Source of the DNA: Bacilli bacterium
GTDB taxonomy: Bacteria > Bacillota_I > Bacilli_A > ML615J-28 > CAG-698
Direction of reading: 5' to 3'
DNA: 64,000 nt
NCBI GenBank assembly: GCA_017450215.1
Contig: JAFSVH010000057.1
Location: 11,154 to 75,153 of the forward strand
The position numbers were made by a program, and so were the translations under genes. Each line of letters opens with the position of its first letter. The stretch's first letter is position 1. The notes beneath the pieces were generated by a model, which was given only the letters and a program-made list of their open reading frames with translations, did no database searches and had not been told where the DNA came from. Shown in pieces: positions 11,186-40,001 of the stretch.

Positions 11186-12166
11186 TTATCTAAAATAAAC
11201 TGTTTCTCCATCTTTATATTCAGGTAGTGTATATTCGATTGCAGCAAGTGTTGTTTCATTAACATATAATTTTAAACCAGTATCGAATACTTTATAAGGA
11301 ATATCACTAGCTTTCTCACCGTTTAAGATTCTAGCAGCCATATTTCCAGTTTCTTTTCCTAATGATTCATAATTAATACCGATTGTAGCCAAACCACCAT
11401 CATTAACTTCAGAATCAACACCACAGAATACCGGGATTTTCTTTTCTTTACCAACATTGGCAAGAACAGACATTGCTGAAGCTACTGTGTTATCATCAGT
11501 AATGAAGATTGCATCTACATCTGTAGCCAATGCTTCAGCTGTTAATTGAAGTTCACTTGATTTAGAAATAGTTTTAGTCTTAAGCTCAATAGTACTATCT
11601 TTTAAATATTCTTGAATCTTACCAAGATTAGTAACTGAATTAGCTTCAGAAGGATTATAAATGAAGCCTAATTTATTTAATGGTTTTTCATTTGTTTGCA
11701 TTACTTCTTTAATATAATCAAGAATTAATGATACTTGGATAGCATCACTTGTACCAGTGATGTTAGTACCACTACTTAATATATCAGTTGGATCACTTAC
11801 TGCTGAGAAAACTACTGGAATTTTATCGCTGTATTTAACTGCTTCAACTGCAGTTGGAGTAGCGATAGCAATGATTACATCAGCTTTTTTGTTTTTTAGT
11901 GTTGCCATGATTGTAGCTATTGTGGAAGCATCGGCATTACCATTTTCTAAGATAATCTTACAATTCTTGCCATCTTCATAGCCTTGTTGCTTAAGTTCAG
12001 CAATACAAGCATCTCTAATTGTATCTAATGAGTCATGAGTTACATATTGTACAATTCCTATAACAGGTCCATTTATGCTATCACAAGCAGTTAATGTAAA
12101 TACAAATGATAACATTAATGCAAATAAACATACGATTGATAATAATTTTTTAATACTTTTTTTCAT
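11186..12166 (-). CDS. ABC transporter substrate-binding lipoprotein (ABC_sub_bind / TrpX-like)
   Basis: Lipobox LTACDS, and the size and pattern of COG2984-type binding proteins (GIVQYVTHDSLD ... IAIATP). Confidence 0.75.
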   Translation of the reverse strand: MKKSIKKLLSIVCLFALMLSFVFTLTACDSINGPVIGIVQYVTHDSLDTIRDACIAELKQQGYEDGKNCKIILENGNADASTIATIMATLKNKKADVIIAIATPTAVEAVKYSDKIPVVFSAVSDPTDILSSGTNITGTSDAIQVSLILDYIKEVMQTNEKPLNKLGFIYNPSEANSVTNLGKIQEYLKDSTIELKTKTISKSSELQLTAEALATDVDAIFITDDNTVASAMSVLANVGKEKKIPVFCGVDSEVNDGGLATIGINYESLGKETGNMAARILNGEKASDIPYKVFDTGLKLYVNETTLAAIEYTLPEYKDGETVYFR

Positions 12167-12330: not shown

Positions 12331-12632
12331 AAAAAAACGCACTAATCCTTAAAACATAAGGACAAGTGCGAATAATATTCACCTGCGGTACCACCTTAAT
12401 TGATAAAAAATAATTTTATCCACTTCATTCTAAATGCAATCACATTTATTCCTCTATAACGGGAGTACCCGTCAAGTCCTACTAAAACAATTGTTTTTTA
12501 TAAAAATTGTTTTTTCAGCTTGCCCTCAAAGGCCCATTTACTAATCCGCTTGTTATTTGCATCGCACCATCGCAAATTCTCTTAAAACGCGCTATAAGTT
12601 TTACTTCCTTATCGATAGTTTTAAATAATACT
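12331..12632 (-). promoter_or_regulatory. T-box riboswitch leader, possibly Trp-specific, with an intrinsic terminator
   Basis: The reverse complement of 12380..12401 reads AATTAAGGTGGTACCGCAGGTG, matching the T-box consensus AAUUAGGGUGGNACCGCG. Immediately 3' on the minus strand lies a terminator, CGCACUUGUCCUU-loop-AAGGAUUAGUGCG plus U7 (plus-strand coordinates 12331..12370). The candidate specifier region is AGUAAAUGGGCC, containing a UGG codon. The leader is about 300 nt long. Confidence 0.7.
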
Positions 12633-14049: not shown

Positions 14050-14084
14050 GAATACATAATACAAAATAAATATTTAAATTTTGA

Positions 14085-14122
14085 GATTCTAGTGGCTAAA
14101 ATTGCGCTAGAATCTATTTTTA
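14085..14122 (+). terminator. Rho-independent terminator after bioY
   Basis: GATTCTAG-loop-CTAGAATC followed by a T-run. Confidence 0.5.
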
Positions 14123-14440
14123 TATTATAAATTAATAAATATGAAAATAAAGATTGATTTATGTTTTTCATAATATTTTATAAATTTTTTTAATAAATGG
14201 GTATTTTATGGATAAGAAATGATAATTATAAAAAATTATAAAATTAGAAATGATGGGACTAAAATGTCGTTTAAAGCAATTATAAAAAAAAATAATAAAA
14301 AAAAGTGTGGAAAAAAAAGGAAAAATGATATAAAATCTATACGATGCATTATTGTCGGGGATTTTAACTTGTTTTTATAAATTATTTAAGTATTATAAAA
14401 AACCCGTAATAGATAAATATTTTAAGAGGGAGGTAATCAG

Positions 14441-16672
14441 ATGTTCAAGTTGTACTGCTGTGGAAGTCGTGGAAGTAGACCTGTTGAAGGTAGACGTTTT
14501 AACGAATTCGGTGGATTTACAAGTTGTTATATTTTAAAAACAGATGATTATGCTTTAATAATTGACTGTGGAACAGGATTTTATGAAGCAAATGCAATTG
14601 TTTGTGATTGCTCTAAAATTGATATTGTTCTAACACATGTTCATTATGACCATATTTTAGGTATGCTAGATTGGACAGCAATTCCTAAGACATCAATTGT
14701 TAATTTCTATGCTAACTTTGATGAGTGGTTTGGCGATAAAACTATGAAGGAATTCTTTAGGAAGCCTTTCTGGCCAGTTCAACCAGACTTCAATATTCAT
14801 CAATGTCCAAGTGATGGTGTTCCACTAACACTTAGAAATGATTTAAGTGTAGAATTTTATTCATCACCTCATCCTAATGGTGCTAAATTATTAATGATTC
14901 GTCAAAAAGAATTAAGCGATAAGAATAGTAAATTTGTGAAAGAAAATAGAGTAACAATCATGTTTGATTGCGAAAGAAGTGATGGCTTAGATGAAGAATT
15001 AATTAGAGATTGTGATCTTTTAATCTATGATGGAATGTATACTGATGAAGAATATCCATCAAAGATTGGTTATGGACATTCAACATGGGAAGAAGGCTGT
15101 CGTCTTGCTCAAAGAATTAAATGTAAAAGGTTGATTATCACTCATCATAGTCCTGACCGGGATGATGATAAATTGAGATCTTATGAAGAAAGAGCAAGAA
15201 GTGAATTTTATCCTAATACAGATTTTGCTCGTGCTGGACAAACTTGGGTTGTTGGTGGTGAAATTGTAAAACAAGAAGGTTTGATGCATAGATTTAATGA
15301 AAGAATTGAGAATCAAGCCTTACAAGGTAAAAAAGTAGCTAAAGATATTGCAAAGACTAAGTCTAAAATTAAAGATAAGTTCAAGGAAATGACTGACATC
15401 TTAATGGATGAAGGTAAAATGAGACGTTTTATGTCTCATGCTACTTACTTTTTATTATTTGTGGTTGCTGTCATAATGACTATAGTTAATTATTTTACTG
15501 GACAAAAGCCTTTGTTAATTGCAACAATATCTTTTGCGATTGGTTCACTTGCTAGTTTTATTATATCTAAATTCTTTAAGAAAACAGAAAAAGTAATAGG
15601 AATTATCTTCCAGATTGAATTTATTGCATTATTTACTTATTTTATTGTTACTGGTCATCCTGAAGGATTTAGTATTATTTGGATGTTACTTCTACCTACA
15701 ATGGGTATGGTTGTATTTGGTAAGCGTAATGCGACGATTACATCTTTTATATTATTTATTATTTTGGTATTCTTTTTCTGGATACCAGCTGGTAGAAACT
15801 TATTAAATAATCATCCATATACCGATTCCACAATGCTTCGTTTCCCACTTGCTTTTCTTGCATTTTTTGCAGTTGGTTATTTGTTAGAAACATTAAGACA
15901 TTATGGTTATATGAAGTTAGATGCTTTAAAGATTGAACTTGATAATAAAGTTGCAGATCAAATTTCTGAATTGAGAGATCAAAACTTTGAACTTGTGAAA
16001 GTTAATTCTCAATTAGATTTGAGAAATAGATTGCTTAATAATACATTTGGTAGATTTATGCCAGATAAAATTGTTGGTGAATTATTAGATAATCCTAATA
16101 CTAGTGAAATTGAAGGTAAGAAGATGACTGTTACAGCCCTTCAATGTGATATTAGAGGATTTACTCATATTTGCCAAACAATGGAGGCTTTAGACATTGT
16201 CGGTATGATTAATCATTATTTCTCTGAAATGACTGATATAATTCAAAGAAATCATGGAACTATTCTAGATTTCGTTGGTGATGCTATTTTAGTTGTATTT
16301 GGTGCTCCAATTCCATCAGATAATCAAGCTGATGATGCAATTATCACTGCAATTGAAATGCAAAAAGCGATGAGAAGAATCAATGAATGGAATATTGCTA
16401 ATTACTATCCTGAATTAGAAGTAGGTATTGGTGTACATACAGGAGAAGTGGTATTAGGTACAGTTGGATCTCAAAGACATATGAAATATGATGCAATGGG
16501 TAATGCTGTTAATATTACATCTAGAATAGAAGGTGTTGCGAATGGTGGAGAAATCTTAACTACTAAGGATACAATTGAAACATGTAAGATTCAATTTAAG
16601 ATTCTTGATGAAAGGAAAGCAACTCTTAAAGGTATTGATAAACCTGTAGAATTATATGAAATTGATTATTAA
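14441..16672 (+). CDS. Tripartite fusion: MBL-fold (class-II cNMP phosphodiesterase-like) hydrolase, 6-TM domain and class III adenylate/guanylate cyclase
   Basis: Residues 1 to about 290 carry THVHYDHILGML, which fits the class-II PDE/MBL signature HxHLDH. About 6 TM helices follow (roughly residues 330 to 500), then a coiled-coil linker. The C-terminal part is a complete class III cyclase core with both metal Asp (CDIRGFT, DFVGDAILVVFGAP) and the Asn/Arg transition-state residues (GNAVNITSRIEG). Strong RBS (GAGGGAGG). Confidence 0.75.
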   Translation: MFKLYCCGSRGSRPVEGRRFNEFGGFTSCYILKTDDYALIIDCGTGFYEANAIVCDCSKIDIVLTHVHYDHILGMLDWTAIPKTSIVNFYANFDEWFGDKTMKEFFRKPFWPVQPDFNIHQCPSDGVPLTLRNDLSVEFYSSPHPNGAKLLMIRQKELSDKNSKFVKENRVTIMFDCERSDGLDEELIRDCDLLIYDGMYTDEEYPSKIGYGHSTWEEGCRLAQRIKCKRLIITHHSPDRDDDKLRSYEERARSEFYPNTDFARAGQTWVVGGEIVKQEGLMHRFNERIENQALQGKKVAKDIAKTKSKIKDKFKEMTDILMDEGKMRRFMSHATYFLLFVVAVIMTIVNYFTGQKPLLIATISFAIGSLASFIISKFFKKTEKVIGIIFQIEFIALFTYFIVTGHPEGFSIIWMLLLPTMGMVVFGKRNATITSFILFIILVFFFWIPAGRNLLNNHPYTDSTMLRFPLAFLAFFAVGYLLETLRHYGYMKLDALKIELDNKVADQISELRDQNFELVKVNSQLDLRNRLLNNTFGRFMPDKIVGELLDNPNTSEIEGKKMTVTALQCDIRGFTHICQTMEALDIVGMINHYFSEMTDIIQRNHGTILDFVGDAILVVFGAPIPSDNQADDAIITAIEMQKAMRRINEWNIANYYPELEVGIGVHTGEVVLGTVGSQRHMKYDAMGNAVNITSRIEGVANGGEILTTKDTIETCKIQFKILDERKATLKGIDKPVELYEIDY

Positions 16673-16736
16673 AAATATTTAAAAGACCTAGGGTATGAAT
16701 GTTGTGAACCCCATTTATTGGACATTTTAAAAAGAA

Positions 16737-17507
16737 TTATATATAACTATAGGATTGAGTTCTAAATTCAACAGGACTTAGTCCTTTTAGTTTACTCTTA
16801 ATTCTTTTGTTATTGTAATAAAAAATATAATCATGTATCTCTTGTTTTAATTCATCTAAGGATTCGAATCGGTATCCGTAAAACATTTCTGTTTTCATCC
16901 TTCCAAAGAAGTTTTCCATAACTGAATTATCTAAACTATTTCCTTTTCTTGACATACTTTGCACTATTCCGTGATCGACTAGTGATTTTTGAAAAGATGA
17001 CTGTTGATATTGCCATCCTTGATCACTATGTAATATAGGATGATCATTTATGCCCAATTTTTCGTAAGCTTGATTCATCATATTCCATATTTGACTCATC
17101 CAAGGATGCTCTGATAAATCATAAGCTATTATCTCACCATTATATAAATCTATTATTGGTGATAAATATAGTTTTGATTCACCCAATTTGAATTCAGTAA
17201 TATCTGTACACCAAACCTTATTTATTTTATCACATTTAAAATTACGTTTATAATATGTTTTGTGTTTTTCTTTATCAATAACCTGATAAATTAGTTTATT
17301 ACTGACAGTTTTACCAACTTGACCTTTATATGAATTATATTTAGAAACATTCTTAGATTTGCATTTTAAGCCCAATAATCGCATTAATTTCAATACTTTC
17401 TTGTGATTGATATGATTATTTTTATATTCTGACAATTTATTTAAAGCAACTGTTATTCTACGATAACCATATCTTCCTTTATTATCGTTAAATACTTTTT
17501 GAATCAT
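16737..17507 (-). CDS. IS3-family transposase OrfB (DDE/rve integrase domain)
   Basis: HSDQGWQYQ together with the D...D...E pattern of rve. The reading frame continues upstream to the frameshift site, so the annotated start M is probably internal. Confidence 0.8.
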   Translation of the reverse strand: MIQKVFNDNKGRYGYRRITVALNKLSEYKNNHINHKKVLKLMRLLGLKCKSKNVSKYNSYKGQVGKTVSNKLIYQVIDKEKHKTYYKRNFKCDKINKVWCTDITEFKLGESKLYLSPIIDLYNGEIIAYDLSEHPWMSQIWNMMNQAYEKLGINDHPILHSDQGWQYQQSSFQKSLVDHGIVQSMSRKGNSLDNSVMENFFGRMKTEMFYGYRFESLDELKQEIHDYIFYYNNKRIKSKLKGLSPVEFRTQSYSYI

Positions 17508-17635
17508 TTCCTTATCAAAAGTGTAATCTCGTGAATTTTGAGACTTGAAATAATAATATGTACTTCTCGGTATACCAGATAGTTTTAGTAGTTCGGTTAA
17601 TGGATACTTTGCACTTGGTTCTCGAACTACTTGAG

Positions 17636-18004
17636 CTATTTCTTTTCTTTTTGCTCTCTGGCAGATACTAAGGCACTCAATTTTTTTAAGTATTCATTCT
17701 CCATTTCTAATCGCTGACATTTGGCTATTAAATCCTCTTCAACTTTAGGATCTAAATCTTTCTTTTTTCCTTTGCATTTTAATCCTCTACCACGTCTTTC
17801 AATATAGAATCCTTCTTTACCTTGTTCAAGATAAATTCTTTCCCAAGCAGCGACTCTTTTATTATCGGGATATTGGTAATCATGTATAGTGGTATATAGA
17901 TTAAACCTTCTAGCCGTTTCCATTTGTGATAAGTTTTCTTTCAACTTGGTTTCAATAACTTTAATTTTAAATTCAGGTGAATATTTTTTGTTTTCTCTAG
18001 GCAT
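17636..18004 (-). CDS. IS3-family transposase OrfA (HTH)
   Basis: MPRENKKYSPEFKIKVIE... with a leucine-zipper-like C-terminus (LEMENEYLKKLSAL), typical of IS3 OrfA. Confidence 0.8.
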   Translation of the reverse strand: MPRENKKYSPEFKIKVIETKLKENLSQMETARRFNLYTTIHDYQYPDNKRVAAWERIYLEQGKEGFYIERRGRGLKCKGKKKDLDPKVEEDLIAKCQRLEMENEYLKKLSALVSAREQKEKK

Positions 18005-18104
18005 AAGAAAAGCACCCCTTTCTTTGTTATATTATACACCTTTTTTAGGTGTCTAACAAATGGGGTGCATTTCAGAATCCTAGGTCTTTTAAATATAATT
18101 ATTA

Positions 18105-19602: not shown

Positions 19603-22239
19603 ATGAAAAAATACGTTTACTTATTTACAGAAGGAAACGCTAAAATGCGTGAATTATTAGGTGGTAAAGGTGCTAATCTTGCTGAAATGACAAACATTGG
19701 CTTACCTGTTCCTCAAGGTTTTACTATCTCAACTGAAGCTTGTACTCAATATTATGAAGACGGAAGAAAGATTAATGATGATATTCAAGCTGAAATTATG
19801 ACTTATGTTGCAAAACTTGAAGAAATCACAGGCAAGAAGTTTGGTGATAAAGAAAATCCATTACTTGTTTCAGTTAGAAGTGGTGCTAGAGCATCAATGC
19901 CAGGTATGATGGATACAATTCTTAATTTAGGTTTAAATGAAGAAGTTGTTGAAGTATTGGCTAAAAGAAGTGGAAATGCTAGATGGGCATACGACTGCTA
20001 TAGAAGATTTATCCAAATGTTCTCTGATGTTGTTATGGAAGTTTCAAAGAAGGAATTTGAAGCATTAATTGATATAAAGAAGGAAGAAAAAGGCGTTAAG
20101 CAAGATGTTGAACTTACTGCTGAAGATTTAAAGGATTTAGCTAATCAATTTAAAACTAAATATAAAGCTGCTTTAGGTAAAGATTTCCCAAGCGATCCAA
20201 AGGAACAATTATTTGAAGCTATTAAAGCAGTATTTAGAAGTTGGGATAACCCAAGAGCTAACGTTTATAGAAGAGATCATGATATTCCTTATTCTTGGGG
20301 TACTGCTGTAAATGTACAAATGATGGCATTCGGTAATATGGGTGATGATTGTGGAACTGGTGTTGCTTTCACAAGAAATCCTGCTACTGGTGAAAAAGGA
20401 TTAATGGGTGAATTCTTAATGAATGCACAAGGTGAAGACGTTGTTGCTGGTGTTAGAACACCTATGCCAATTTCTCAAATGGCTGAAGTATTACCTGAAG
20501 TTTATGAACAATTCCTAGATGTATGCAATATCTTAGAAAATCATTATAGAGATATGCAAGATATGGAATTCACAATTGAACGTAGAAAATTATATATGCT
20601 TCAAACAAGAAATGGTAAGAGAACAGCAGCTGCTGCAATCAGAATTGCTTGTGATTTAATCGATGAAGGAATGATTAGTGAAGAAGAAGCATTATTACAA
20701 ATTGATGCTAAATCTTTAGATATGTTATTACATCCAACATTTGATGTAAAAGCATTGAAGGATGCTGATAAATCTCATGTAGTTGGTACAGGTATTGCTG
20801 CTAGTCCTGGTGCTGCAAGTGGTACAGTTGTATTCACATCTGAAGAAGCTTGTGAATTAGGTAAATTAGGAAAGAAGGTTGTTCTTGTAAGATTAGAAAC
20901 TAGCCCAGAAGACATCGAAGGAATGAAGTATTCTCAAGGTATCTTAACAGTACGTGGTGGTCAAACATCTCATGCTGCTGTAGTAGCACGTGGTATGGGT
21001 ACTTGCTGTGTATCTGGATGTGGTGCAATTGAAATGCATGAAGAAGAAAAATGGTTCAAACTTGCTGGAAAGAAATTCGTTGAAGGAAGTGAAATTTCTT
21101 TAGATGGTTCTACTGGTAAAATCTATGATATAGCTATTAAGACAGTTCCAGCTGACCCTAATTCAGGTTATTTTGGACGTATAATGAAATTAGCTGATAA
21201 ATATAAAGCTATGGAAGTTAGAACTAATGCTGATACTCCAAAAGATGCTAAGAAAGCAGTTGAGCTTGGTGCTGAAGGTATTGGATTATGTAGAACAGAA
21301 CATATGTTCTTTGAACCAGATAGAATTGGTGCATTCAGAGAAATGATTTGCTCAGATACATTAGAAGCACGTGAAAAAGCTTTAGCTAAGATTCTTCCAA
21401 TGCAGCAAAAAGATTTCGAAGAATTATATAAAGCTTGTAAAGGCTATGCTGTAACTATTCGTTATTTGGATCCACCTCTACATGAATTCGTTCCTACAGT
21501 TGAAGAAGATATTAAGGAATTAGCAAAGGCATTAAATAAAGATGTTAGTGATGTTGTTGCCTTAATTGATTCATTACATGAATTTAATCCAATGATGGGC
21601 CATAGAGGTTTAAGATTAGCTGTAACTTATCCTGAAATTTGCAAGATGCAAACTAGAGCTGTTATTAGAGCTGCTTTAAATGTTAATAAAGAAATGGGTT
21701 GGAATATTGTTCCTGAAATTATGATTCCACTTTCAAGTGAAGTTAAAGAATTAGGATATGTTAAAAAAATCGTTGTTGAAACTGCTGATGAAGAAATTAA
21801 GAATGCAAATGCAAAACTTGAATATAAAGTTGGTACAATGATTGAAATTCCAAGAGCTGCTTTAACAGCTGATGAAATTGCTACACAAGCTGATTTCTTC
21901 TGCTTTGGAACTAACGATTTAACACAAATGACATTTGGATTCTCTAGAGATGACTCTGGTAAATTCTTAAATAGTTATTATGAAAAGAAAATTTTAGAAT
22001 TTGATCCATTTGCAAAATTAGACCAAGTAGGTGTTGGTAAATTAATGAAGATGGCTATTAAATTAGGTAAGCCAGTTAACCCTGCTTTACATGTTGGTAT
22101 TTGTGGAGAACACGGTGGAGATCCATCATCAATCGAATTCTGTCATGAAATTGGTTTAGATTATGTTTCATGCTCACCATATCGTGTTCCAATCGCAAGA
22201 TTATCTGCTGCACAAGCAAATATTAAAAATAAAAGATAA
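19603..22239 (+). CDS. ppdK: Pyruvate, phosphate dikinase
   Basis: 878 aa, with N-terminal GGKGANLAEM, the phospho-His region GGQTSHAAVVARGMG and a C-terminal PEP-utilising domain. Confidence 0.95.
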   Translation: MKKYVYLFTEGNAKMRELLGGKGANLAEMTNIGLPVPQGFTISTEACTQYYEDGRKINDDIQAEIMTYVAKLEEITGKKFGDKENPLLVSVRSGARASMPGMMDTILNLGLNEEVVEVLAKRSGNARWAYDCYRRFIQMFSDVVMEVSKKEFEALIDIKKEEKGVKQDVELTAEDLKDLANQFKTKYKAALGKDFPSDPKEQLFEAIKAVFRSWDNPRANVYRRDHDIPYSWGTAVNVQMMAFGNMGDDCGTGVAFTRNPATGEKGLMGEFLMNAQGEDVVAGVRTPMPISQMAEVLPEVYEQFLDVCNILENHYRDMQDMEFTIERRKLYMLQTRNGKRTAAAAIRIACDLIDEGMISEEEALLQIDAKSLDMLLHPTFDVKALKDADKSHVVGTGIAASPGAASGTVVFTSEEACELGKLGKKVVLVRLETSPEDIEGMKYSQGILTVRGGQTSHAAVVARGMGTCCVSGCGAIEMHEEEKWFKLAGKKFVEGSEISLDGSTGKIYDIAIKTVPADPNSGYFGRIMKLADKYKAMEVRTNADTPKDAKKAVELGAEGIGLCRTEHMFFEPDRIGAFREMICSDTLEAREKALAKILPMQQKDFEELYKACKGYAVTIRYLDPPLHEFVPTVEEDIKELAKALNKDVSDVVALIDSLHEFNPMMGHRGLRLAVTYPEICKMQTRAVIRAALNVNKEMGWNIVPEIMIPLSSEVKELGYVKKIVVETADEEIKNANAKLEYKVGTMIEIPRAALTADEIATQADFFCFGTNDLTQMTFGFSRDDSGKFLNSYYEKKILEFDPFAKLDQVGVGKLMKMAIKLGKPVNPALHVGICGEHGGDPSSIEFCHEIGLDYVSCSPYRVPIARLSAAQANIKNKR

Positions 22240-39334: not shown

Positions 39335-39811
39335 AATGACCTCGTTTGTTTATTATTATATTTTGTATTCAGTTAACCACGAATACTTTACGATTATATC
39401 ATAAATTATTCATTCTTTCCATCTTTTTTTGATTTAGTTTCTTTTTGTTTTAAATAATGTGTATTAAATAAAAAAACATATTACATGCTTTGTGTTCATA
39501 TATTACTATAAAAGCTAGGCGATTTCATTTTTGAATATTCGTGGGGATATGATATTTTAGTATTTCATAGTGACGATTTCTATGCTTTACAACAAGCATA
39601 TAATGATGAATATATTTCACAAATCGATTTATGTGAAATTTATAGAATTTATCATAAATGATTTAACAATATGATAAAACATTATGAAAAAATAAAAAAC
39701 AATTTTCATGAAAATAATGTTTCAAAAGAAAACATTTTCAAGCGATTATTTTCATTGATTGCTTGAATTAAATTATAGTTTTGGTAAAATAATAGTGTAA
39801 TTAAATATTTT

Positions 39812-39960
39812 AGCCGATATATACCTTCATTAAATCGTGGCGAAGGAGTCTCTACCGCATTGCCCTTAAGAATGCGACTATCGAGGAAATATACCCTAAA
39901 AACAAGGGGGTAATTTCGTTTCTTTTTATATTGGCGTTATTTTGTAACGTCTTTTTTTAT
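39812..39960 (+). promoter_or_regulatory. Candidate purine (guanine-type) riboswitch-like leader with an intrinsic terminator upstream of xpt
   Basis: GUCUCUACC resembles J2/3 GUUUCUACC and GCGACUAUC resembles J3/1 GACUAUG of purine aptamers, but the loops are atypical. Downstream lies a terminator ACGTTA-TTTTG-TAACGT-C followed by T7 (39937..39960). Confidence 0.35.
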
Positions 39961-40001
39961 TATATTAATGAATAATTTATTAATGAATAATTGAGGTGCA
40001 A

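Follow-up and report, generated by a model that had tools for sequence, protein, structure and literature searches.

A predicted fusion of a metallo-beta-lactamase-fold hydrolase, a MASE6 membrane sensor, and a class III nucleotidyl cyclase in a Bacilli bacterium

To our knowledge, cyclic mononucleotide signaling is poorly charted in Firmicutes, and bacterial cyclic GMP (cGMP) signaling is known in only a handful of cases. The described enzymes closest to the hydrolase considered here include the atypical class II phosphodiesterases (PDEs), namely Rv1339, YhfI, and Corynebacterium glutamicum CpdA, which belong to PF12706, carry the signature [T/S]HxHxDH, and lie near RNase Z (Thomson et al., PMC9293780). 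The same work gives HxHLDH as the class II PDE signature and reports that Rv1339 also cleaves 2',3'-cyclic nucleoside monophosphates (2',3'-cNMPs) (PMC9293780), and YhfI prefers cyclic AMP (cAMP) and cGMP over cyclic CMP (cCMP) and cyclic UMP (cUMP) (Hobbs et al., PMC9117128). Among membrane cyclases, a cyclase transducer element (CTE) has been placed N-terminal of the catalytic core of Cya2 in the paper describing structure 6fht (PMC5995499). Here, we describe a gene that appears to bring relatives of both kinds of enzyme together in one polypeptide. It occupies positions 14441..16672 (+ strand, stop codon included) of a 64,000-nucleotide stretch from a Bacilli bacterium (assembly GCA_017450215.1, contig JAFSVH010000057.1, positions 11,154 to 75,153), the whole of which is hereafter called the window, and this open reading frame (ORF) encodes, from an ATG start, a 743-amino-acid (aa) protein made up of an N-terminal metallo-beta-lactamase (MBL) domain, a MASE6 membrane domain, and a C-terminal class III cyclase.

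The layout of the gene was defined from the ORF list, Pfam, and an AlphaFold2 model of the full-length protein (mean predicted local distance difference test score, pLDDT, 84). Three Pfam domains were each detected above their cut-offs: Lactamase_B_2 (PF12706) at aa 39-236 (E 2.9e-15, 56.8 bits, above the gathering cut-off), MASE6 (PF20966) at aa 326-487 (E 7.4e-11, 42.8 bits versus a cut-off of 27.4), and Guanylate_cyc (PF00211) at aa 562-739 (E 8.4e-29, 100.9 bits versus a gathering score of 21.9), with PF00753 also matched in the N-terminal MBL domain. A preliminary description, made from the nucleotide letters and their translations, had proposed this three-part architecture and had named PF12706 and PF00211 for the two ends; the domain matches bear it out. 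The motifs that it quoted are all in place (THVHYDH starting at aa 65, CDIRGF at aa 569, DFVGDA at aa 610, and KYDAMGNAVNITSRIEG at aa 682), and its estimate of about six transmembrane (TM) helices between the catalytic domains agrees with six hydrophobic segments and six AlphaFold2 helices. The same protein, 100% identical, was present on 11 independent metagenomic contigs with unchanged neighbors, and full-length orthologues are known at 37-82% identity, so the fusion is not an assembly or frameshift artefact.

We favor, with moderate confidence, the reading that this protein is a homodimeric, MASE6-controlled bifunctional cNMP cyclase/phosphodiesterase, with an unusual specificity code and a hydrolase from an uncharacterized PDE branch of the RNase Z/YhfI clade. 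By analogy, it would be the cyclic-mononucleotide counterpart of the GGDEF-EAL enzymes. The analysis itself shows what the domains are, that the catalytic residues are conserved, how the protein is predicted to cross the membrane and continue in a long helix, and that the MBL subfamily is repeatedly linked, by fusion or in operons, with cyclases and cNMP-binding proteins; the substrate of the PDE, the product of the cyclase, dimerization, reciprocal regulation, and the kind of signal sensed are inferred.

The strongest argument for a PDE role of the MBL domain is its context. Members of the same MBL subfamily occur as MBL-MASE6-cyclase, MBL-GAF-cyclase, CHASE2-cyclase-MBL, X-cyclase-MBL, REC-MBL, and MBL-GAF-HD_5 proteins, and a domain that is joined to class III cyclases at either end, and alongside different sensors, is likely to be functionally connected with them and not the product of one chance event. 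At 13 of the 15 Firmicute loci from species-representative genomes, the MBL domain was located in the cyclase ORF itself or in an ORF adjoining the cyclase. In MBL-GAF-cyclase proteins and in fusions with a C-terminal MBL domain, the cyclase carries the canonical adenylyl cyclase (AC) pair Lys/Thr, which argues that the MBL domain travels with bona fide cNMP makers. The commonest close relatives (~35 clusters) are proteins of ~535 aa that have MBL-MASE6 without a cyclase and end after the signaling helix and a CTE-like segment. Where upstream DNA was available for such cyclase-less relatives, all three lay in an apparent operon of the order cNMP_binding, Guanylate_cyc, MBL-MASE6 (L085:4707-8936, L086:107-4364, and L087:3297-7644, from related metagenomic Firmicutes), comprising genes for a 163-177-aa cNMP-binding protein, a 714-718-aa membrane class III cyclase, and a 527-547-aa MBL-MASE6 protein, with the cyclase stop overlapping the MBL start. 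The operonic cyclases retain their catalytic residues, and their base-specifying pair is Glu/Asp in two and Gly/Asp in L087. Judged by their domains, a receptor, a synthase, and an MBL hydrolase share one apparent operon, as is typical of gene sets for second-messenger signaling. The cNMP-binding proteins carry the phosphate-binding cassette FGEIALI...PRTA; a Thr after the cassette Arg favors cGMP in protein kinase G and cyclic nucleotide-gated channels, yet it is also present in the cAMP-preferring HCN channels, and the PRTA sequence is thus only a hint toward cGMP.

Few proteins share exactly this architecture; databases give it no name, and the searchable literature does not describe it. 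Of 1.84 billion representatives (50% identity clusters) compared with the MBL domain, no more than 60 reached E <= 1e-30, and about two-thirds of the best ~35 were multidomain. The MBL-MASE6-cyclase layout itself was represented by five sequences at 50% clustering and 13 at 90%; no database source names any of its members, and the searchable literature, which covers few subscription journals, yielded no article dealing with MASE6 or with the fusion of an MBL domain to a cyclase. The preliminary description was therefore right to call the architecture unusual, and the fusion proved neither common nor, in these sources, already characterized. The closest match among species-representative genomes was from Solobacterium sp. 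UBA1761 (47% identity), and relatives were found in metagenome-assembled genomes of Erysipelotrichaceae, Lachnospiraceae, and Clostridia, one of them from goat omasum. These relatives, together with a T-box and a purine riboswitch in the window, mark the host as a Firmicute, with a G+C content of roughly 30%.

Some of the related loci hold further observations. The MBL-GAF-HD_5 protein (L002:10112-12376), whose HD_5 domain we take to be of the HD-GYP type, would by its domains be a two-hydrolase signaling protein, and the same cluster also holds a standalone MBL protein and a cyclase-MBL fusion; a third MBL-containing ORF is likewise present in L005 and L009. Beside the three-gene operon of L086, a called gene (L086:4639-10364, - strand), with a product listed as 10,123 residues and no Pfam match, runs off the end of the locus.

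The first 270 residues (14441..15250, + strand) are predicted, from the Pfam matches to PF12706 and PF00753, conservation, and AlphaFold2, to form an MBL-fold binuclear-metal hydrolase, probably a 3',5'-cNMP phosphodiesterase; the model of aa 1-290 had a mean pLDDT of 91.6. The domain carries the T65-H-V-H-Y-D-H71 motif together with H144, D176, H213, and H235/H236. Across 60 relatives, H66, H68, D70, H71, E178, D197, H213, H235, H236, and D242 are invariant, and H144 and D176 are conserved in at least 90%, a pattern indicating that the catalytic residue set is under strong selection. The preliminary description had called this domain class II PDE-like on the strength of the HxHLDH signature. 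An MBL hydrolase with all metal ligands is indeed present, and T65-HVHYDH71, lying within the PF12706 domain, fits the atypical signature [T/S]HxHxDH. The window protein reads H-V-H-Y-D-H where the class II signature has HxHLDH, PF02112 (canonical class II PDEs, also named in that description) gave no match to it even at E <= 10, and yeast PDE1 (4ojv) matched the family profile only marginally (E 0.0056, confined to aa 23-56). Membership in the canonical class II PDEs (PF02112; yeast PDE1, Vibrio CpdP) was rejected on these grounds. The case for a PDE role is carried mainly by the association of the domain with cyclases and cNMP-binding proteins.

Between the MBL domain and the first membrane helix lies a Lys-rich helical linker (aa 281-322; 15281..15406, + strand), with AlphaFold2 helices at aa 281-294 and 298-322, that is predicted to be cytoplasmic. 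Ten Lys and Arg residues fall within aa 301-332, just before TM1, and by the positive-inside rule they place the predicted N-terminus inside the cell; together with six TM helices, this puts the C-terminal cyclase inside as well. The membrane part (aa ~324-490; 15410..15910, + strand) has six hydrophobic peaks and modeled helices at aa 324-353, 356-378, 380-404, 408-426, 428-447, and from 462 onward. The preliminary description had recognized the six segments, to which a named sensor family, MASE6 (PF20966), can now be added. The outside loops are very short (3-14 residues), so that a soluble periplasmic ligand is hardly possible, and a signal that arises in the membrane itself or comes from a partner protein appears more likely.

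From TM6, the model continues as one unbroken helix (aa 462-536), made up of TM6 and a signaling helix, followed by a short helix at aa 542-550. The signaling helix and CTE together span aa ~491-555 (15911..16105, + strand), as delimited by AlphaFold2 and alignment with Cya2. The stretch aa 534-555 (NTFGRFMPDKIVGELLDNPNTS) is highly similar to the one immediately before the Cya2 catalytic core in 6fht, and a motif in this region, ELRDQNF..N..L.LRN, is kept across the family. The predicted CTE thus lies directly N-terminal of the catalytic core, as expected of a true CTE, and the modeled succession of TM6, signaling helix, and CTE corresponds to the route by which membrane class IIIa/b cyclases usually relay signals.

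The remainder of the protein (aa 556-743; 16106..16669, + strand) is assigned as a class IIIb nucleotidyl cyclase catalytic domain from its PF00211 score, its similarity to Cya2, and residue mapping. The closest solved cyclase is the Synechocystis guanylyl cyclase (GC) Cya2 (2w01, E 3e-38), followed by Pseudomonas aeruginosa CyaB and Spirulina CyaC, which we take to be class IIIb enzymes. When residues were mapped against a published catalytic table (PMC6005667), D570 and D614 were identified as the metal-binding Asp pair (Cya2 D448 and D492), R572 and R695 as the phosphate residues (Cya2 R450 and R573), R695 also being the transition-state Arg, and N691 as the ribose-binding Asn (Cya2 N569). 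The preliminary description had judged the cyclase catalytically complete, and the metal Asp pair and the Asn/Arg pair stand. It overlooked the base-specifying pair, which by the same table (PMC6005667) is D610 at position 1 (Glu488 in Cya2, Lys in ACs) and D684 at position 2 (Gly562 in Cya2, Asp or Thr in ACs, Cys in GCs). This is neither the AC pair (Lys plus Asp/Thr) nor the GC pair (Glu plus Cys/Ser/Gly), as position 1 is acidic but Asp, position 2 is Asp, and the position of the Cya2 Tyr is occupied by Ser694. All catalytic positions of the window cyclase are intact, with a base pair that is non-canonical.

An acidic residue (Asp or Glu) plus Asp is also the base pair of the MBL-MASE6-cyclase clade and of most operonic cyclases. 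The sole experimental proxy that we found for such a pair is the K101E variant of Ma1120, in which a Glu/Asp pair led to the loss of most AC turnover, a gain of GC activity, and similar rates with ATP and GTP (PMC4215837). In our estimate, cGMP or a mixture of cGMP and cAMP seems somewhat more likely as the product than pure cAMP, and pyrimidine cNMPs seem unlikely. A conserved extension of ~100 aa after the cyclase (GIGxPYN... followed by ...LFDNIRIN...) was observed in P0007, P0009, P0010, and operonic cyclases (in the last ~120 aa of the one at L085:5210-7360, for example); Pfam does not recognize it, and the window protein lacks it.

Several observations count against the bifunctional reading, and the first of them concern the family scores of the MBL domain. 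Its strongest NCBIfam matches are to RNase Z models, the best being NF000801 with 69.6 bits versus an equivalog cut-off of 252, partial and confined to aa 186-268, and the standalone relatives likewise have RNase Z models as their best partial matches among hidden Markov models (HMMs; 60-89 bits versus cut-offs of at least 252). The model for cyclic nucleotide-degrading phosphodiesterases, NF041851, gave 37 bits versus a cut-off of 400 for the window protein and 29-69 bits for ten standalone relatives, none of which rose above any curated NCBIfam cut-off. These scores speak for a rival reading in which the MBL domain is not a cNMP PDE but an RNase Z-like or other phosphodiesterase or hydrolase. 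Its substrate would be RNA, 2',3'-cyclic phosphates, linear oligonucleotides, or some compound derived from the membrane, and the protein would couple that activity to cNMP synthesis instead of degrading what its cyclase makes. The RNase Z HST motif is kept in the window protein (GHSTW, aa 212), the activity of Rv1339 on 2',3'-cNMPs is in line with such a substrate, and the family-specific invariant motifs CCGSRGS, PFWP, and YDGM have no characterized counterpart.

Nevertheless, all RNase Z matches are partial and fall 3-4 fold under their cut-offs, so that HMM searches do not assign the N-terminus to RNase Z. A profile built from 19 members of the window MBL family found its best PDB matches, both over the full length, in BA1088 (4e-19) and Bacillus subtilis YhfI (5e-15), ahead of RNase Z/ELAC1 (6e-14 to 1e-12), and Foldseek returned YhfI and B. 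subtilis RNase Z as tied best structural matches. In the profile alignment, which favors YhfI and BA1088, the family has no counterpart of the ~50-residue RNase Z insertion, which we take to be the flexible tRNA-binding arm. Moreover, a role as an RNase leaves unexplained the cyclase fusions in both orders and the operons of cNMP-binding and cyclase genes. We therefore regard a non-PDE hydrolase as unlikely. As judged from these comparisons, the MBL domain is a distinct, uncharacterized branch of the RNase Z/YhfI clade, with which a cNMP PDE role is compatible and for which it is unproven.

The cyclase half supplies further points on the same side. The Asp/Asp base pair is unprecedented among the characterized enzymes that we checked. 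Several related cyclases lack a metal Asp (P0008, P0010, P0011, P0040, P0042, and P0114), the 61% orthologue P0003 has lost the cyclase Asn and Arg, and P0004-6 have Ser in place of the Asn, indicating that the cyclase half is not always under selection for catalysis. In addition, no cNMP-binding or Crp-like receptor was found in the 64-kb window, which was searched with HMMs of the operonic cNMP-binding proteins and an approximate Escherichia coli Crp probe. Reciprocal regulation of the two activities, finally, is proposed purely by analogy.

Decay of this kind would also fit a protein of which only one half is catalytic in vivo, that is, a MASE6-regulated PDE whose cyclase serves as a dimerization or NTP-sensing module or as a silent partner, as in GGDEF-EAL proteins with one degenerate domain. 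It is frequent in the clade (P0003, P0008, P0010, P0011, P0040, P0042, and P0114), and the ~35 clusters without a cyclase have kept the signaling helix and CTE-like segment. In P0011 (L089:6001-10339), an MBL-MASE6-cyclase protein whose cyclase retains neither metal Asp and has also lost the Asn and Arg, the dead cyclase is followed after a 5-nt gap by an intact 724-aa cyclase gene, and by analogy with the eukaryotic C1/C2 halves the two may form a heterodimer. The Asp/Asp pair might itself lower activity, given that the AC kcat of Ma1120 K101E fell ~16-fold, from 216 to 13.4 per s (PMC4215837). However, the window protein, its 82-99% relatives, P0007, and P0009 have kept the full set of catalytic residues, and the window contains no second cyclase gene. 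The standalone operonic cyclases combine intact catalytic residues with Glu/Asp (one Gly/Asp), which argues that such pairs belong to working enzymes. We consider a single active half slightly less probable again than a hydrolase of another kind.

The preliminary description had also raised Pycsar-type defense. In that case, the cyclase would make cCMP or cUMP on infection and an Apyc1-related MBL domain would keep the signal off in uninfected cells. PADLOC PycC models do recognize the cyclase domain, the best of them with 67.6 bits (E 2.6e-19), Apyc1 (PF23023) matches the MBL domain weakly, and a non-purine-like Asp/Asp pair makes pyrimidine substrates formally possible. The PycC score is nevertheless under that of generic PF00211 (100.9 bits), as expected from shared class III ancestry, and the Apyc1 model reached 12.2 bits versus a cut-off of 50, at aa 31-77 only, around the HxHxDH region, with Apyc1 itself (PDB 7u2r) weak in the profile search (E 1e-3); Apyc1 membership was rejected on that score. 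There is no adjoining effector gene (TIR, or TM with a cNMP-binding domain), and the neighbors BioY, glyA, and ppdK are conserved in the 55-82% orthologues. A membrane sensor with a signaling helix and CTE is typical of signaling cyclases, and YhfI-type enzymes prefer purine cNMPs. With generic PycC homology, no effector gene, and conserved housekeeping synteny, a Pycsar system was rejected as highly improbable. A search of 2.9 million viral contigs returned one weak match to the MBL subfamily, at 25% identity; this near-absence from viruses also speaks against defense, and a phage origin was likewise rejected.

Under the bifunctional reading, the protein would act as a homodimeric inner-membrane enzyme that unites the making and the breaking of a cyclic mononucleotide. 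Its class IIIb cyclase would synthesize a 3',5'-cNMP, most likely cGMP and/or cAMP, between which the Asp/Asp pair does not decide, and the N-terminal MBL domain, as a relative of the YhfI/Rv1339-like binuclear-metal PDEs, would hydrolyze the same cNMP to the 5'-NMP. Both catalytic domains are predicted to face the cytoplasm because six TM helices follow the Lys-rich segment, and, given almost no extracytoplasmic loops, MASE6 probably senses within or at the membrane, where a lipid or hydrophobic ligand, a change in the physical properties of the bilayer, or contact with a partner protein could be its input. From MASE6, the signal would reach the cyclase along TM6, the continuous signaling helix, and the CTE, as it does in other membrane-bound class III enzymes. 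The PDE would hang on TM1 by its helical linker, and one conformational change could switch the two activities in opposite directions, as in bifunctional GGDEF-EAL proteins or Rel synthetase/hydrolases. The resulting signals would be rapid, confined in space, and self-limiting. We also put forward, as a tentative and bolder extension that we think less probable than its opposite, that the window protein and the three-gene operons belong to an unrecognized signaling system based on cGMP (or another non-cAMP cNMP) in gut and rumen Firmicutes, in which the hydrolase is a new, sensor-regulated branch of MBL PDEs and the window gene is a self-contained make-and-break version, reciprocally switched by one intramembrane sensor.

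Upstream of the gene lies an intergenic region of 391 bp (14050-14440) with about 17-20% G+C. The preliminary description had called it a 390-bp AT-rich leader; the AT-rich spacer is there, but it is an ordinary intergenic region with a promoter-like block. Comparison with the locus of the 82% orthologue (L091) revealed conservation only in a ~60-nt block, ~100 nt before the start codon, and in the Shine-Dalgarno sequence (GAGGGAGG; 14426..14433, + strand), which ends 7 nt before the ATG. The block contains a promoter-like site (TGGAAA, a 17-nt spacer, and TAAAAT; 14308..14336, + strand); such sites are not enriched in the spacer over shuffled sequences, and the consensus scan alone is weak evidence. 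This pattern suggests a 5' untranslated region of ~100 nt rather than a long structured leader. A riboswitch or leader RNA was rejected, with no Rfam match in the spacer and only the promoter-like block and Shine-Dalgarno sequence conserved with the 82% orthologue. A 53-aa Lys-rich ORF (14219-14380, + strand) called as a gene in metagenome records had no Pfam match, lies mostly where the 82% orthologue locus lacks the sequence or matches it poorly, and is probably not a gene.

Downstream, an insertion sequence (IS) of the IS3 family, with orfA and orfB (16705..18069, - strand), starts 33 bp past the stop codon, in agreement with the preliminary description, and is not part of the signaling protein. 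It was delimited by its 37-nt imperfect terminal inverted repeats (TGAACCCC...GGGGTGCA, with TG...CA ends) and by its domains (rve/rve_2/HTH_21 in orfB and an HTH transposase domain in orfA). The element is missing from the syntenic 82%-identical locus L091, where an intact intrinsic-terminator hairpin (AAAGATCTAGG-TTAA-CCTAGGTCTTTTTTT) directly follows the stop codon. In the window, the arms of this inverted repeat are separated, the left (AAAAGACCTAGG) at 16681..16692 and the right (CCTAGGTCTTTT) at 18079..18090 (both + strand), so the insertion is recent and split the terminator in its loop, leaving the coding sequence untouched. Its position in the terminator may permit read-through or outward transcription.

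In both the window and the 82% orthologue, the gene order is BioY, the fusion gene, glyA (opposite strand), ppdK, and LD-carboxypeptidase, with the IS in the window only. The 55-61% orthologues have the gene directly upstream of ppdK (pyruvate phosphate dikinase; window 19603-22239, L082:10523-13162, L083:10296-13007, and L091:5096-7732). In all orthologous loci examined, ppdK is thus downstream, either directly (28-nt gap in L083) or past glyA only, and this adjacency may reflect inherited synteny or a functional link to carbon and energy state. Elsewhere in the window, Rfam detected a T-box leader (12355-12624, - strand; 102 bits, above the gathering score), which precedes the minus-strand gene of an ABC substrate-binding protein (11186-12166) and its transporter genes, and a purine riboswitch aptamer (39795-39900, + strand; 42.9 bits versus a gathering score of 37) upstream of an ORF starting near 39987.

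Taken as a whole, the locus would be a compact system in which one 743-aa protein perhaps makes and destroys its own messenger, with relatives forming a family of split versions that have a dedicated receptor protein, and it points to unexplored cNMP (possibly cGMP) signaling in gut Firmicutes. If the MBL domain is a PDE, a regulated, membrane-tethered branch would be added to the atypical class II PDEs, the fused synthase/hydrolase logic of c-di-GMP and (p)ppGpp would have evolved for cAMP/cGMP as well, and the Asp/Asp (or Glu/Asp) pair would be a new specificity code of class III cyclases. The modularity of the protein could also be of interest for the design of optogenetic or synthetic signaling tools.

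Compared with YhfI, BA1088, Rv1339, and CpdA, the window MBL domain has the same fold, the [T/S]HxHxDH signature, and the full metal-ligand set, is without the long RNase Z insertion, and is proposed to perform the same chemistry, 3',5'-cNMP to 5'-NMP. It shares only ~20% identity with the YhfI-type enzymes, carries the extra motifs CCGSRGS, PFWP, and YDGM, and forms one chain with a membrane sensor and a cyclase, whereas those enzymes are soluble, standalone proteins of ~245-275 aa. From RNase Z/ElaC (ZiPD) it differs by the absence of the ~50-aa insertion, by HMM scores 3-4 fold under the equivalog cut-offs, and by its place within cNMP-signaling architectures. The cyclase half most resembles Cya2 (CHASE2-TM-CTE-class IIIb GC; 2w01), with which it shares the class IIIb core, a similar pre-core CTE segment, an acidic residue in place of the AC Lys at base position 1, and, as predicted, membrane anchoring and a homodimeric state. 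However, Cya2 has a Glu/Gly pair with a supporting Tyr where the window protein has Asp/Asp and Ser, and it combines a periplasmic CHASE2 sensor with no PDE domain, in contrast to the intramembrane MASE6 and MBL domain found here.

At the level of the whole protein, the nearest parallels are the GGDEF-EAL proteins of c-di-GMP and the Rel/SpoT enzymes of (p)ppGpp, which join the synthase and hydrolase of one messenger in one polypeptide under a shared sensor, and in whose paralogues one half is often degenerate, as the cyclase half is here. The window protein would differ from them in handling a cyclic mononucleotide, in using unrelated folds (a class III cyclase and an MBL domain), and in placing the sensor between the catalytic domains. 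Dictyostelium GbpA and GbpB, MBL-fold cGMP/cAMP PDEs fused to cNMP-binding domains, offer a precedent for such a PDE in a multidomain signaling protein; they are eukaryotic and fused to a receptor domain rather than to a cyclase.

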